Origin: Myxococcota bacterium
Lineage (GTDB): Bacteria; Myxococcota_A; Polyangia; Nannocystales; Nannocystaceae
Length of the DNA: 40,300 nucleotides
Direction: 5' to 3'
Assembly (NCBI GenBank): GCA_039028615.1
Contig: JBCCHT010000068.1
Coordinates: 1 to 40,300 of the forward strand
Position numbers and translations under genes: made by a program. Shown one piece after another: positions 8,765-23,551 of the stretch; positions within the stretch are counted from its first letter, which is position 1, and each line of letters starts with the position of its first letter. Below the pieces are notes generated by a model, which did not search any database, had not been told where the DNA came from, and saw only the letters and a list, made by a program, of their open reading frames with translations.

Positions 8765-9628
8765 TCAGCGGTTGGAGTCCAGGGTGCGACGGATCCAGTC
8801 GCCGACGACCTGGACCACCGAGTCGGGATCGCGCGCCCACGCGAAGTGGGCTCGACCACGACCTGGCCGACTCAACCTCACGCGGCGGGCGTCGATTCGA
8901 GCGTGGGGCATGCGACGCGTCAGCTCGTGCATGGCCGCGGGCGGAGCCCAGTCGTCGCCCTGCACGGTCACCGCGACCACGGGCTTGGCCTGCTCGACGG
9001 CCTGCGCCTCCCAGTCGCGCTCCCCTTCGATCGCGTAGCGCCCGCTCCGAGCGCAGCTCGACCACTCCTCCATGAAGGTCTGCGACTCGCGATGGCCGAA
9101 GCCGAACAGCTTGCCCGGAAACCAACCCAAAAGACGCACCGTGAGGGGAAAGAGCCGACCCGCCAGCTGGACCTGGAGCGTCATCGCACCGCCGTAGCTT
9201 CCCCACCATGGGCTTCCCCCCGCCACGAGCACGAGGCCCGCGACCTCGTCGGGCAGCGCGGCCGACCCCAGCACGGCGACCTGCGCCCCCAGGCTGTGGC
9301 CCCCCACGAAACACGGGAGATCCGCGAAGCGCTCGCGGGCTGCAGCCACGGCCGCAGGCAGATCGCACTCGAGGAGCTCGCGATAGCCGAAGTCGACCCC
9401 GCGGCGGGCCCGAATGCTGCTGCTGCCGACGCCGCGGGCCTCGAGCATCACGAGCGCGACCCCGGCCTCGGCCATCGCCTTGCCGAAGGGCTCGTAGTAG
9501 CCGCCCGCGATCCCGAGCCCTCCGTGGAAGACGACCACCGCCCGGGGAGAGGCGGGCGCGAAGATCCGCAAGGTCGTCTGCGCCCCGTCCGAGGTGGTCA
9601 GGCGTTGTTCGTGGGTTTCGATGCTCAC
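8765..9628 (-). CDS. Alpha/beta-fold serine hydrolase
   Basis: GTG start overlaps the res stop (GTGA), with GAGGA RBS. Nucleophile GHSLG, RGVGSS, Asp in GDDWAP, His in AHFAW. Confidence 0.88.
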   Translation of the reverse strand: MSIETHEQRLTTSDGAQTTLRIFAPASPRAVVVFHGGLGIAGGYYEPFGKAMAEAGVALVMLEARGVGSSSIRARRGVDFGYRELLECDLPAAVAAARERFADLPCFVGGHSLGAQVAVLGSAALPDEVAGLVLVAGGSPWWGSYGGAMTLQVQLAGRLFPLTVRLLGWFPGKLFGFGHRESQTFMEEWSSCARSGRYAIEGERDWEAQAVEQAKPVVAVTVQGDDWAPPAAMHELTRRMPHARIDARRVRLSRPGRGRAHFAWARDPDSVVQVVGDWIRRTLDSNR

Positions 9629-11427
9629 GATGGATCCTCTTGCTGCTCGAGGGCATGCACGATGGCGGCGGCGGCCCGCTCGACCGCCCGCCAGCTCGTA
9701 CTCGAACCGGACGCGCAGACCTCGAGCACGGCCTGCATGGTCGCGCGGGAGACCAAGCATGGCGGCCGGCGGCGCAACAACAGCTCGGTCAGCGCGTCGA
9801 CGGGTGAGGTCGGCGACGCGCTCGGGTCGTCGACTTCGGCTGCGGCTCGTTGCGCGTGGGCGCACGCGTCGGTCTGCAAGCGCTCGCCGTCGATGGGCCG
9901 CCAGGGCGGTGCGCCCTCGGTCCGCGCCACCGCCTGCGACACCGACCCCTGCCCGATTCGCTCGGGGGCAGGCGCTCGCTCGTCGGCCCCCCAGGTCTGC
10001 CCGTCTTCGTCCTGCAGCCCGGCCACGTAGTCCTCGTAGCTGTCGTTGGCCACCACCGTCAGCACGTTGACCTCGGGATCGAGCACACGCTCTCCGCTCT
10101 GGCCGACGGCCAGCCGCACGCCGCGGCCGATCTCCTGCCGCTTGCGGATCTCCGACCGAGACCGCGCGAGCGTGCACAACACGAACACGTTCGGGTTGTC
10201 CCAGCCCTCGCGCAAGGCGGAGTGCGACACCACGAAGCAGACCGGCTCCTCGAAGGACAGAAGCCGCTCCTTGTCGCGCATGATCAGCGCGTAGGCATGC
10301 TCGTCGGCCGCGCTCTGCCCCGTGCGGGAGTCGACGGCCACGCTACGCCCCGCCTTGCGGCGCTCGGCGAAGTACGCCGCGCAGACCTGGGAAAAGGAGT
10401 GCGGCGAGGCCTCGGCAGCCAGCGACTCCCAGCAGCGCTGAAGCTCACGGCGCACCAGCCCCTCGGGCTCGACCCAGTCGGCCACGTGCTCGACGAAGAG
10501 CAGCGACAACACCTTGATCCCGCGCGGTGCGAGCTCGGCCTGCCGCTTCACGTGCCGTCGCACGGTAGCCTCGATCTGGGCGGCGATGCGAGCGTGTCGG
10601 TCCTCGATCCCGGTCGCGGGTGCGGCCACCTCGATCCGCTTGACGAGCCCCTGCACGTGCGCCTGGCGAGGCGTCAGGCGATGCACGAGCGCGTGGCGAT
10701 GACGATGGGTAGCCGAGTAGCGGAGCACCAAGGCGGGCGCCAGATCGACCAGCGCGGCCCGGCTGCGGGGGCTCTCCATGCGCTGCGGTTCATCGAGCAC
10801 GACCACGGGGCGAACCGCCTGCAACGACGCGATGGGCGACTGCCCGGCGAACGCATCCGAAGGCCGCCGCATGAGGTTGCTGGCCTTGTTGAAGGCATCG
10901 AGGGTCACCACCATGATCTCGATCTGCGACGAGCGGGTGAACGCGCGTAAGCGACCGAGTCGGCTGCCGTCGTAGGCGAAGAAGCGGTGTCGAGTGCCCG
11001 GCAGGATGGCGGCGAAGTGCTCGGCGGTGATGCGCAGGGTCTTGAGCACGCCCTCGCGGATGGCCACCGAGGGCACGACCACCACGATCTTGCGCAGCCC
11101 ATGGCGGCGGGCCAGCTCGAGCACGGTCCGCAGGTAGGCATAGGTCTTGCCCGTGCCCGTCTCCATCTCCACGGCGAGCTGCGGGCCGATGCCCTCGCCT
11201 CGCGGGTCGAGCTCGGTGCGCGGCAAGCCAGCGGCGTCCTGAACCCCGTGCAAAGCCTCGAGCATGCGCTCGGCCTTCACCGTGACGCGATTGGCCACGA
11301 CCCCGTGCTCCCGCCCCGCGACCATGCCCTCGGCGACCGAGACGTGTGGTTGCCCGGCCACGACCTCCAGCACGGCCTGGATCGCCGCCCGCTGGTGCGG
11401 CTGGTCGGGATCGAAGCGCAGCTTCAT
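9625..11427 (-). CDS. res: Type III restriction-modification Res-like SF2 helicase/ATPase, shortened (600 aa), no recognisable endonuclease domain
   Basis: Starts MKLRFDPDQPHQ, with ATGA overlap with mod. Motifs METGTGKT, DEPQ, YSATH, GIKVLSLLF, ALREGWDNPNVF and QEIGRGVRL. No PD-(D/E)xK-type tail is visible. Confidence 0.88.
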   Translation of the reverse strand: MKLRFDPDQPHQRAAIQAVLEVVAGQPHVSVAEGMVAGREHGVVANRVTVKAERMLEALHGVQDAAGLPRTELDPRGEGIGPQLAVEMETGTGKTYAYLRTVLELARRHGLRKIVVVVPSVAIREGVLKTLRITAEHFAAILPGTRHRFFAYDGSRLGRLRAFTRSSQIEIMVVTLDAFNKASNLMRRPSDAFAGQSPIASLQAVRPVVVLDEPQRMESPRSRAALVDLAPALVLRYSATHRHRHALVHRLTPRQAHVQGLVKRIEVAAPATGIEDRHARIAAQIEATVRRHVKRQAELAPRGIKVLSLLFVEHVADWVEPEGLVRRELQRCWESLAAEASPHSFSQVCAAYFAERRKAGRSVAVDSRTGQSAADEHAYALIMRDKERLLSFEEPVCFVVSHSALREGWDNPNVFVLCTLARSRSEIRKRQEIGRGVRLAVGQSGERVLDPEVNVLTVVANDSYEDYVAGLQDEDGQTWGADERAPAPERIGQGSVSQAVARTEGAPPWRPIDGERLQTDACAHAQRAAAEVDDPSASPTSPVDALTELLLRRRPPCLVSRATMQAVLEVCASGSSTSWRAVERAAAAIVHALEQQEDPS

Positions 11428-13052
11428 AGCAGCGATAGCGGGTGTCGCCGGGCGAGGTTGAAGGCCAGTTCGTCGTCGAGGGCCTCGGCCCGACACACGA
11501 CGGAGGTGCTCGAGGTCAGGCCCCAGCCCGCGACGGCGTCGGCATCGAGCGCGGCGTCGAGGCTCACCACCAGGCGCCGCGCCCCGTGCTCCAGCGCCCA
11601 GCACTGCGAGCTCAGCCCTTCGATGCGGGCACTGAGCGGAAACCCGGCCGCGACCGCGGGGCCCCAGGGATCGCGCGGCCAGGGGTGGTGTTCGTCGCGG
11701 TCCTCGAGCTTGAAGCAACGCAGCCCTCGCCCGGATGGCCGCGCGGCCGCGATACGCAGGCGAGTGACGTCGGCGATGGTCTCCGCCCCCAGGGTCCGCG
11801 CGGGCGCATCGGCGGGCAGTTGCTCGGGCAGCTGCGCCAGGATGCACTGCCGCGATCCGCCCTGCTCGGCGTCGAGGCGGAAGACCGCTTCGGCCGTGGT
11901 CCCCGACCCCGCGAAGAAATCGAGCACCACCCCGTCGGGATCGGAGCCCAGCCGCAGGCAACGCTCGACGAGCTCGACCGGCTTGGGGTGATCGAACGCC
12001 GCCACGCCCAGGCGCTCTCGCAACGCTCGGGTGCCTCGCTCCGAGCGGAGCTCCGGCTCGTCCCACACCGACTTGGCCTTGGAGGTCTGCGCGCGGTGCT
12101 TCTCGTAGACGTTGAACACTCCGTCGCGTCGCCGCCGTGCCACGACCTCGAGCGTCCCGTTCTCGGAGATCGCTGCCTGCAAGCGCGGCTGCCCCCATCG
12201 CCACACGCTCGGCGACCCCTCGCGGTTGCGCGGCTCCGTGCGGATCCAGTCGGTGCGGGCCTCGACCGCGACCGGACACAGCCCGTCTTCGTCGGCCGCC
12301 TCGGCATCGACCCAGATCGGATAGAAGAGGTTGGGCCGATTGGCGGGCGAAAAGCGAGGGTTGCGATTGCGAAGCTCTCGCAGCTCGTAGGGCCCTCGCT
12401 CGTCGCGGTGCTTGGGCGCGGGCCCCTGCCGGGGCAGCGCGCGCACGGGCGCGTCGGGGCTCTTGCCGTAGCACAGCAGGTATTCGTGCGTCGTGGCGAT
12501 CCGCAGGTAGTCGCGTCCGCCTCGATTGCCGATGACCACCACCTGCGCCACGAAGCAGTCGGGACCGAAGACCTCGTCGAGCAGCACCCGCAGGTGGTGG
12601 ACCTCGTTGTCGTCGATGCTGATGAAGATCAGCCCGTCGTCCCGCAGCAACTCGTAGGCGACCCGCAGCCGGGGCTCCATCATCGCCAGCCAATTGGAGT
12701 GGAAGCGGCCGTGGGTCTCCGGGTTGGCGACCAGTCGCTCGCCCTGTTCGCCGGCCTGCCCGCTGCGACGCAGGTACTGCGCGGTGTCTTCGGCGAAGCG
12801 ATCGCGATAGATGAAGTCGTGCCCCGTGTTGTACGGGGGGTCGATATAGATGCACTGCACGGTGCCCGCGTAGGCGGGCCGCAGGATCTTCAGCGCGTCG
12901 AGGTTGTCGCCTTCGACCAGCACGTCCCCCGCGTCGTCGAAGTCGATGGACTCGGGCGCGTCGGCCACCAAGCGAGCCGCGGGTTCGTCGTGAGCGTGGG
13001 CGGCCGCCTCGGACTTGCCTGCGTAGCGCAAGCCGAACGGCTCAAGCTCCAT
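11424..13052 (-). CDS. mod: Type III R-M Mod subunit (N6-adenine DNA methyltransferase, beta class)
   Basis: VEGDNLDALKIL, IYIDPPYNTG, FISIDDNEV, FDHPKPVEL and VLDFFAGSGTT motifs; adjacent to res. Confidence 0.93.
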   Translation of the reverse strand: MELEPFGLRYAGKSEAAAHAHDEPAARLVADAPESIDFDDAGDVLVEGDNLDALKILRPAYAGTVQCIYIDPPYNTGHDFIYRDRFAEDTAQYLRRSGQAGEQGERLVANPETHGRFHSNWLAMMEPRLRVAYELLRDDGLIFISIDDNEVHHLRVLLDEVFGPDCFVAQVVVIGNRGGRDYLRIATTHEYLLCYGKSPDAPVRALPRQGPAPKHRDERGPYELRELRNRNPRFSPANRPNLFYPIWVDAEAADEDGLCPVAVEARTDWIRTEPRNREGSPSVWRWGQPRLQAAISENGTLEVVARRRRDGVFNVYEKHRAQTSKAKSVWDEPELRSERGTRALRERLGVAAFDHPKPVELVERCLRLGSDPDGVVLDFFAGSGTTAEAVFRLDAEQGGSRQCILAQLPEQLPADAPARTLGAETIADVTRLRIAAARPSGRGLRCFKLEDRDEHHPWPRDPWGPAVAAGFPLSARIEGLSSQCWALEHGARRLVVSLDAALDADAVAGWGLTSSTSVVCRAEALDDELAFNLARRHPLSLL

Positions 13053-22129: not shown

Positions 22130-22420
22130 TCAGCGGTCGCCTCGGCCCCGACCGCGACGACCCGGCAGCAACGCTCGCAGCGACGGGCGAGGCAGTCGCG
22201 GCATCTTCCACAGCGCGGCCGCGAGCTGCTTGGCCAGGTGCAGCGGGGTGGCGCCGCGAGCCTCCACCGAGACGCGCTGCCCCTCGAGATCCTCCATCGC
22301 ACCTCGCGCGATCGTCCGCTGCCCGTCCGAGCGGATCTCGACGACGAGGCGGGCCACGACCGGCAGCTCGTCGTCCTCGACCCTCGAAAGTGCCTCGTCG
22401 GTCTCGTCGGAACGGGACAT
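22130..22420 (-). CDS. Small hypothetical protein (96 aa)
   Basis: Protein-like core LPVVARLVVEIRSDGQRTIARGAMED; ATG lies 8 nt after TAGGAT. Confidence 0.65.
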   Translation of the reverse strand: MSRSDETDEALSRVEDDELPVVARLVVEIRSDGQRTIARGAMEDLEGQRVSVEARGATPLHLAKQLAAALWKMPRLPRPSLRALLPGRRGRGRGDR

Positions 22421-22605
22421 TGCACGAGATCCTACCCCTTCGAGGCCCCAATTCGTGGTCCGCCTCACGCAACGGACCGCCGCAGCATCTACTTGCGAAA
22501 TACGCGCGATGATACGTTCCCGGTTAGTCGATGCCCTGATGGCGCACGGAGCGCCACCCCCTCGGAGGGGGGCATCGTCCACCTTAAGAAGGAGGTTCGA
22601 ACCGC

Positions 22606-23454
22606 ATGAGACGACGTCCGCGAATCGCCGGCCTGGCTGGGCTCGGTGCTACGGCGCTCGTGCTGAGTGCCTGTCAGGGTCAGGGGGCGTTCAACGCCAT
22701 CCAAACCAAGCTGGCGGAGATTTCCGATCAGCAGACGCAGATCCTGGACCGCATCGGCCAGCTCGAGACGAAGATTGAGAACATGCCCGCTGCTGCACCT
22801 GCAGCTCGCGGCAAGCAAGCCCCCAAGGGTCCGCAGCCTGGACGGCCGGATCCCAAGGCGACCTACAAGGTCGCGGTGGGCGATGCCCAAACCAAGGGTC
22901 CCGCCGACGCGAAGATCACGATCGTCGAGTGGTCGGACTTCCAATGACCCTACTGCCAGAGGGTCGGTCCGACTCTCAAGCAAATCACTGACGCCTACGG
23001 CGACGACGTCCGTATCGTCTTCAAGCACAACCCGCTTGGCTTCCATCCCCGGGCCATGCCTTCCGCGCTCGCAGCCGAGGCTGCCGGCAAGCAAGGCAAG
23101 TTCTGGGAGATGCACGACAAGCTCTTCGCCAACAACAAGGCCCTCACCGACGAGAACTTCGACAAGTTCGCCGGCGAGCTGGGTCTCAACGTCGAGCAGT
23201 TCAAAAAGGACATGGCCGACGCTGGGCTCAAGAAGAAGATCACCGGTCAGCAGCAGCAGGGCGTCGGCCTTGGTGCTCGCGGCACCCCGGCCTTCTTCAT
23301 CAACGGCCGCTTCCTGTCGGGGGCTCAGCCCTTCCCCGCCTTCAAGGCGGTGATCGACGAAGAGGTCAAGAAGGCCGACAAGTTGATCGCATCGGGTACC
23401 CCGAAGGCGAAGGTCTACGAGAAGACGATCGAAAAGGGCAAGACCAAGGTCTAA
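22606..23454 (+). CDS. DsbA-family thioredoxin-fold lipoprotein, probable selenoprotein (Sec at codon 114, UPYC)
   Basis: Track ORFs 22606-22947 and 23056-23454 are in the same frame. Reading through TGA (22945-22947) gives IVEWSDFQ-U-PYCQRVGPTLKQI...VFKHNPLGFH...QGKFWEMHD...GTPAFFING..GAQP. Strong SD AAGGAGGT; lipobox VLSAC. Confidence 0.9.
22959..22977 (+). other. Candidate bacterial SECIS element
   Basis: Hairpin GAGGGTCG-GTC-CGACTCTC starts after an 11-nt spacer from the TGA. Apical GGUC sits at +22..+25 (U of UGA = +1), the same register as E. coli fdhF. Confidence 0.82.
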
Positions 23455-23485
23455 CGCCCCGGCAGGCTCGCCTGCCCGTTCGTAC

Positions 23486-23533
23486 GACAAGGGCCGCTCT
23501 TCCCTCGGGAAGGCGGCCCTCGTCTTTGGTTTC
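23486..23533 (+). terminator. Intrinsic terminator after the DsbA gene
   Basis: AGGGCCGC-T-CTTCCC/GGGAAG-GCGGCCCT stem followed by TCTTTGGTTT, between convergent genes. A second hairpin GGCAGG/CCTGCC lies at 23461-23476. Confidence 0.7.
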
Positions 23534-23551
23534 GGCCTCGGTGGTCGCGAC

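Follow-up and report, generated by a model that had tools for sequence, protein, structure and literature searches.

Does the TGA at 22945-22947 of contig JBCCHT010000068.1 end a short gene, or does it encode selenocysteine (Sec) in the active site of a longer DsbA-like protein? The window, i.e., the whole stretch of 40,300 nucleotides analysed here, belongs to a Myxococcota genome of 12.3 Mb (68% GC, 96.7% complete; hereafter G000), whose ORF track splits the gene into a 113-aa ORF (22606-22947) and an in-frame 132-aa ORF starting at 23056. Translation of the frame 22606-23454 (+) gave 282 residues followed by TAA, the TGA being the sole internal stop, which bears out the claim of a first-pass annotation that only this codon parts the two ORFs; it falls at codon 114 in the context SDFQ-*-PYC, i.e., as also claimed there, at the first Cys of the DsbA motif. 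GC3 was 0.74 ahead of the TGA, 0.81 between this codon and the following ATG, and 0.88 downstream of that, so the "gap" between the two ORFs looks coding. The features of the locus are the following.

22130..22420 (-): short conserved hypothetical gene, oriented divergently to the Sec gene and syntenic with it; product probably about 96 aa
22589..22595 (+): Shine-Dalgarno sequence AAGGAGG, 10 nt 5' of the ATG
22606..23454 (+): predicted selenoprotein CDS, 282 aa with U114; DsbA-like (Thioredoxin_4/DSBA) lipoprotein
22606..22674 (+): lipoprotein signal peptide with lipobox LSA-C23 (LSAC, residues 20-23); C23 invariant in 25/25 aligned homologs
22681..22779 (+): amphipathic helix (residues 26-58), a candidate coiled coil for self-association (heptads, low-pLDDT AF2 helix, three-copy model)
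22858..23391 (+): catalytic domain (thioredoxin fold, helical insert) spanning roughly residues 85-262 (AF2, Foldseek)
22945..22947 (+): putative Sec codon UGA, codon 114, U114 of U-P-Y-C
22954..22956 (+): resolving Cys117, last residue of U-P-Y-C
22959..22977 (+): candidate bacterial SECIS, a hairpin with a stem of 8 bp and the apical loop G-GUC-C, 11 nt downstream of the TGA
23281..23289 (+): G-T-P cis-proline loop, residues 226-228 (sequence, alignment)
23490..23520 (+): GC-rich hairpin, possible terminator with weak U tract, between the selenoprotein gene and a convergent FGE-domain gene

The full-length chain (30.4 kDa, computed) contains C23, U114 and C117 and no other Cys or Sec. The Shine-Dalgarno sequence, lipobox, GTP loop, thioredoxin fold and predicted coiled coil described at first pass were all recovered, whereas the terminator proved weaker than described: the hairpin at 23490-23520 is strong (-25 kcal/mol; z -3.4 for 23455-23535), but its T tail is broken, and a consensus scan with a U-tract rule found no terminator on the + strand. 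A consensus scan likewise found no sigma-70 promoter, and Rfam gave no real family across the region (best E 0.35).

Conservation and probable decoding of the UGA codon

One account of the stop is that the gene is a nonsense pseudogene or an assembly error, or that its product is really the 113-aa stub, with an independent gene following in the 3' part. In its favour, TGA is the commonest stop in G000 (2662/4165 long ORFs), databases do call the stub, and an intact Cys paralog in the same genome could relax selection; it is nevertheless highly improbable in view of what the relatives contain. In a survey of 61 related genomes, covering the best matches listed (202 weaker matches lie outside), single-TGA copies occurred in 13 family genomes including G000, hence in 12 others (G001, G003 with two copies, G004, G005, G011, G013, G014, G017, G019, G026, G028 and G036), as well as in the more distant G024, G038, G043 and G049; the named close homologs and loci are of Nannocystaceae/Myxococcota. 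Within the genus, four of the five other genomes carry the TGA; for G002 the matches listed are Cys copies only, the best of them 341 nt from a contig start. G034, too, showed just a Cys copy among the matches listed. The 165 codons past the TGA are open in 13/13 compared copies, with 111-137 identical residues (67-83%), so that a conserved frame continues beyond a stop that would divide the domain at its active site. Aligning the active-site column, a check proposed at first pass, gave TGA in the Sec copies and a Cys codon (TGC/TGT) in the Cys copies.

The databases tell the same story. All 80/80 short homologs of the stub end at the UGA (after WSDFQ, WSDYQ or WSEFQ), mostly unnamed or "hypothetical", and the public collection contains the 113-aa stub of this contig, whereas the read-through and the exact 132-aa piece are absent from it, in an identity look-up that cannot find U-bearing records. 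Since 12 further genomes of the family and 80 database stubs share this TGA, an assembly error is excluded as its source, and the miscalling as fragments foreseen at first pass is seen directly in these stubs. The annotation error is systematic, with a clade of envelope oxidoreductases sitting in databases as "hypothetical" stubs.

The hairpin at 22959-22977 has a 3-nt loop with G first, a loop position 19 nt after the UGA and an energy of -9.7 kcal/mol, and in our own scan of published criteria (not bSECISearch) all its values lie within the bSECIS limits given in section 5 of PMC13188914, i.e., a loop of 3-9 nt, a stem of 4-16 bp, G within the first two loop positions, a spacing of 16-37 nt and an energy of at most -7.5. 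Taken alone, such a hairpin is ordinary for a genome of 68% GC (z -1.1 to -2.8), so its weight comes from conservation. Among the related genomes, a hairpin of -7.5 or lower was present in 19/21 TGA domains vs 2/62 Cys domains, and at the hairpin the 13 compared copies show synonymous differences in 0-1 of 5-6 codons, against about 25-35% elsewhere. The case that, at first pass, was to refute the selenoprotein reading, close relatives all with Cys and without the hairpin, did not arise: TGA and hairpin are kept together in relatives.

A scan of GTDB with the pattern TGA-P-[YFH]-C-x-[RK]-V-G-P-T, third positions free, extended this beyond the phylum. It returned at least 123 loci, with 127 distinct TGA sites among the matches listed; of these sites, 127/127 used GTC for V, GGT for G and CCG for P, and 118/127 had a hairpin of -7.5 or lower. 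The 123 loci listed, several per genome in cases, carry the labels Acidobacteriota (60), Myxococcota (39), Planctomycetota (11) and others (13), and because the pattern required V-G-P-T, Sec forms with other peptides were missed; one Sec domain of G049 has a different hairpin. In a metagenome control, a single scan accepting TGA, TGC or TGT at the same peptide, the core codons were found at 83/83 TGA sites vs 8/40 Cys sites, the hairpin at 80/83 vs 4/40, and an AGG/AGA Arg codon at 77/83 vs 2/40, AGG making up 1.1% of Arg codons in G000. Over 76 distinct sites, 95.6% of stem cells pair, against 22-58% in slid controls; three of the eight stem pairs have changed on both sides (24 cells; 0/500 shuffles as high) and four never vary, while a pair-count covariation measure was not above shuffles (174/500), all these shuffle tests being inflated by sequence relatedness. 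Frozen synonymous codons and compensatory pairing confined to TGA copies speak further against the pseudogene and stub accounts. As a separate observation, the metagenome homolog L194 has TGT and yet a complete SECIS hairpin, which is likely a recent Sec-to-Cys change.

The first-pass annotation also predicted that the genome should carry selA, selB, selC and selD, and all four were found in G000 above curated cut-offs: selA on contig C16, selB on C38 and selD on C12, each on a separate contig, and tRNA-Sec (selC) with a TCA anticodon at C10:12188-12281. A variant code or a suppressor that makes UGA a Cys or Trp codon is another conceivable account, to which the Cys of the paralogs in the same column lends some colour; we give this very little credence, as TGA ends most long ORFs in G000 and the only TCA-anticodon tRNA found there is tRNA-Sec. 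The SelD at C12:10471-11406 (-) has the motif GCAAK, a Cys form, and is therefore not itself a selenoprotein in G000. Four tRNA-Ser genes with differing anticodons and another tRNA lie tightly clustered at C3:258280-258720, and further tRNA clusters occur on C27 and C83.

Across relatives, selA was found in every TGA genome except G013 (71% complete), which also had no selB above cut-off, and G038 (83% complete), in which selB is present. In a phylum-wide sample of 301 genomes, TGA with SECIS occurred in 12, all of them among the 190 with selA and none among the 111 without (0/111), counts in which related genomes are not independent; this co-occurrence again argues against a decayed gene. The comparative data hence show conservation of the UGA, an open frame, a predicted SECIS and the machinery to use it, and support the envelope lipoprotein selenoenzyme inferred at first pass. 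We put the reading of the gene as a Sec-containing lipoprotein, leaving redox direction aside, at roughly 93%, and the presence of Sec at U114 appears, from sequence comparison, close to certain.

A genome-wide scan for TGA with a hairpin, noisy as it was (282 candidates from 121008), yielded eleven hand-picked candidates that were checked against Pfam.

C36:110964, C5:96454, C21:184047, C33:133832, C1:338912, C14:16632, C50:49269, C18:139362, C42:70173, C65:40851, C16:393: other G000 Sec candidates (TGA and hairpin scan)

They comprise an FdhA-like protein, three AhpD/CMD-like CxxU, five AhpC-TSA UxxC, an ArsC-like protein and one unassigned UxxC, and for 9/11 the part around the TGA falls within a Pfam match (molybdopterin oxidoreductase/FdhA-like, five AhpC-TSA, two CMD/AhpD-like, ArsC). 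Three of the five AhpC-TSA candidates sit behind Ig-like segments and are probably exported. Among the 22 DsbA-like matches in G000, just one, the gene at 22606-23454, has a stop.

Architecture and redox direction

The protein passes the Pfam cut-offs of both Thioredoxin_4 and DSBA (PF01323, 94 vs 25.6 bits). AlphaFold2 gave a pLDDT of 46 from the single sequence, and a rerun with a 25-sequence alignment was used instead (mean pLDDT 81; >90 for 183 residues), which confidently places a DsbA-type domain from residue 81 or so onwards, with the helix 26-58 at low confidence and a disordered linker. Foldseek matched the catalytic domain to TsdA, alpha-DsbA1/2, BdbD and ScsC. In sequence and fold alike, the protein comes closest to C. 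diphtheriae TsdA/DsbA (7UNN, 4PWO) and B. subtilis BdbD (3EU3), with E 2e-21 and an rmsd of 2.2 A over 171 columns; SDF-x-CP-[FY]-C and GTPAF are common to TsdA and the selenoprotein, but, unlike the Sec protein, these are Cys enzymes of monoderm bacteria.

Ahead of this domain, residues 26-60 are hydrophobic at 9/10 a/d heptad positions, and a three-copy model of residues 25-65 scored 0.78 vs 0.01 for the best control (contact agreement 100%; pLDDT >=85). The mark for an oligomer was reached by 21/30 solved pairs and 0/23 single chains, a calibration on two copies that three copies lie outside; coiled coils, moreover, resemble many solved structures and may pass by likeness, and three copies were the only number modelled. 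We consider it probable from the model that the protein forms an oligomer, and very likely that it is lipidated and exported.

The following mechanism would fit these features. SelB and tRNA-Sec, directed by the hairpin at 22959-22977, would decode UGA114 as selenocysteine to give a 282-aa prolipoprotein, Cys23 of which would be lipidated so that the protein faces the periplasm, and the coiled coil would bundle several catalytic heads on flexible Pro/Ala/Gly/Lys linkers. The Sec114 selenolate would attack substrate disulfides and Cys117 would resolve, the arguments from selenolate reactivity being general chemistry. The protein would most likely act as an isomerase/reductase for envelope proteins, kept reduced by a DsbD-type membrane protein, while VKOR-DsbA fusions would perform de novo oxidation. 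Under selenium shortage, translation would end at the UGA and the Cys paralog at G000:C3:72431-73285 could cover, a back-up role that we propose only tentatively.

G000 has one DsbD_TM gene, elsewhere in the genome, and four VKOR matches (C9:97466, C17:9616, C4:1866, C23:179531), each adjoining or fused with a DsbA-like domain; DsbB (PF02600) was not found in this genome, complete as it is to 96.7%. N-terminal helical oligomerisation makes alpha-DsbA2, ScsC and LpDsbA2 isomerases, and alpha-DsbA1 pairs with DsbB, as described in PMC6450060; according to PMC11634996, however, both oxidase and reductase activity of ScsC proteins have been seen in cells, so that the oligomer state does not fix the redox direction. 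The trimeric isomerases (Proteus and Caulobacter ScsC, Wolbachia alpha-DsbA2; PDB 4XVW, 7RGV, 6EEZ) resemble the present protein, at 18-26% identity, in having a DsbA-type domain that follows an N-terminal helical segment, which in the present protein is predicted from sequence and model; those are Cys enzymes, whereas the present protein is predicted to carry Sec, and it has no scs neighbours. On balance, we lean towards a lipid-anchored oligomeric isomerase/reductase.

The same selenoprotein might conversely be a dithiol oxidase of secreted proteins, similar to DsbA, BdbD or MdbA and re-oxidised by a VKOR protein. The top PDB matches (TsdA/DsbA, Wolbachia alpha-DsbA1, BdbD) and the four VKOR genes point that way, BdbD and TsdA are oxidase-side proteins, and lipid anchoring is typical of such oxidases; the VKOR matches, however, share their loci with DsbA-like domains of their own, the N-terminal helix is predicted to self-associate, and disulfides oxidise more strongly than selenenylsulfides do, which together leave an oxidase unlikely. 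We think it more doubtful still that the protein serves mainly envelope protection instead of folding, through DsbG-like reduction of sulfenylated cysteines or ScsC-like Cu(I) binding: although, among named seleno families, the DsbG-like NF041057 comes nearest, ScsC structures match and the Sec candidates of G000 include five UxxC proteins that look exported or Prx-like besides several other redox ones, the conserved neighbourhood has no copper or metal gene.

In the family, that neighbourhood comprises an M28 peptidase gene, the small divergent gene, the Sec gene (alone or followed by a tandem paralog) and, in convergent orientation, the FGE-domain gene; it offers no hint of function, and neither dsbD nor VKOR nor any copper gene adjoins the selenoprotein gene. 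The small divergent gene had tblastn matches at 20/29 loci tested and no Pfam or NCBIfam match. Its Atlas record begins at residue 55 of the 150-aa ORF, and it resembles Myxococcota hypothetical clusters with a score of 0.85-0.88, a lead only.

Known families, Cys paralogs and multi-Sec chains

DsbA-like (UxxC; COG2761 or PF01323) and DsbG-like (UxxC; COG1651, NF041057) selenoproteins have been reported (PMC1088965, PMC1794560, PMC2398784), in agreement with the statement at first pass that the class is not new; PMC1794560 lists a DsbA-like selenoprotein for Anaeromyxobacter dehalogenans, and Table 1 of the 2026 review PMC13188914 gives both kinds as predicted, with one Sec each. The present gene, judged from its predicted product, is a fresh member, in a separate subfamily, of this known class. 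With the DsbA-like selenoprotein form 1 it has in common PF01323 above cut-off, UxxC and a SECIS after the UGA; the founding set of that form is COG2761 (PMC1088965), and the present protein is also a Thioredoxin_4 protein, a lipoprotein and a predicted coiled coil, in a comparison on the level of features. NF041057 ("Rcas_1661 family thioredoxin-like (seleno)lipoprotein", DsbG-like) is likewise a UxxC lipoprotein family and matches residues 16-252 (E 2e-30), but the score of 106.2 bits (98.9 in the genome scan) lies below its cut-off of 190, which 0/22 DsbA-like matches in G000 pass. From this score we infer that the protein works like that family without being a member of it and belongs to a separate subfamily. 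For NF041057 the review's listing (PMC13188914) has one Sec, whereas relatives of the present gene carry up to four.

Among the papers listed by literature searches, with subscription papers thinly covered, none was relevant to selenoproteins in Myxococcota or myxobacteria, none treated a native Sec-DsbA in the periplasm, and those on bacterial multi-Sec tandem proteins included no DsbA case. In term searches, the main texts of PMC12013277, PMC13326102 and bioRxiv 10.1101/2022.07.06.499078 mention neither DsbA nor Myxococcota. The BSepDB genome list (Table S1) includes Nannocystaceae, so the selenoprotein genes may already be in BSepDB.

Cys counterparts are abundant. Single- and tandem-domain Myxococcota DsbA-like Cys proteins (e.g., Paraliomyxa miuraensis "DsbA family protein", P0105) are 62-71% identical with the same lipoprotein architecture, but have a TGC/TGT active site without SECIS constraint. 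In G000 itself, the Cys paralog (L049, C3:72431-73285, -) is full-length, 72% identical over 255 residues, shares the lipoprotein design of the Sec gene and has TGT and no hairpin; in G003, G005, G014, G017 and G026 the Sec gene is immediately followed by a Cys paralog. Such a pair of Sec and Cys paralogs in one genome, 72% identical, is a natural experiment on selenium in periplasmic disulfide chemistry.

In a phylogeny of 72 domains, 39 with Sec and 33 with Cys, hand-picked from the collected loci, the Sec/Cys label needs 11 changes, at least 7 of them forced by well-supported branches, and in several genera the Cys paralogs are sisters of their own genus's Sec copies. This sister pattern would reflect repeated duplication with a Sec-to-Cys change, or gene conversion in tandem arrays; in G003, two Sec domains that are nearly identical follow N-termini that differ. 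A single origin of Sec among the 72 domains was considered as well, but the tree lends it no support.

The Sec domain behaves as a module: a lipobox (own pattern) was found in just 10/78 ORFs tested. Tandem chains occur with two Sec (L070, L089, L137, L153, L167), with three (L128, and L060 of G049, C169:67152-69233, +, 693 aa) and with mixed Sec and Cys domains (L077, L113, L116, L129). The longest in Sec, L061 (G038:C117:9123-11759, -), seen in one genome only, has 878 aa, four Thioredoxin_4 domains with one hairpin per domain and UxxC positions U77, U296, U514 and U731, whereas the largest Sec count in the inventory table of PMC13188914 is three. An invariant SECIS and chains of 2-4 Sec would allow one to test how the bacterial ribosome handles several in-frame SECIS per message, which bears on the production of multi-Sec proteins.

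Viewed together, these loci could make up a sizeable subfamily of exported Sec-DsbA modules, as yet uncatalogued, in Myxococcota, Acidobacteriota, Planctomycetota and Nitrospirota, a proposal that we regard as plausible but slightly short of an even bet when all its parts are taken jointly. In such a subfamily, the helix after UxxC and the SECIS would be locked at the nucleotide level across phyla; the heads would be multiplied by a coiled coil, as in the present gene, or by tandem fusion with up to four Sec; and Sec and Cys copies would be maintained together, with repeated changes from one to the other, and might serve as a switch of envelope disulfide handling that depends on selenium. Specialists may find least expected the frozen SECIS across Myxococcota, Acidobacteriota and Planctomycetota and the multi-Sec chains.

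A few observations concern the surroundings of the gene. A plasmid collection returned 5 matches only, all haloarchaeal at about 40% identity, with no sign of mobility. Three metatranscriptome assemblies from one study hold contigs of a strain about 95% identical, which as contigs cannot show transcription; two of them span only the selenoprotein gene (22592-23527 and 22558-23482), and no difference at 22891-23006 occurs among the matches listed, which we do not count as evidence. Elsewhere in the window, 9625-13052 (+) holds ORFs resembling a type III restriction-modification pair, a Res-like helicase and an N6-adenine methyltransferase, from motifs recognised by eye.
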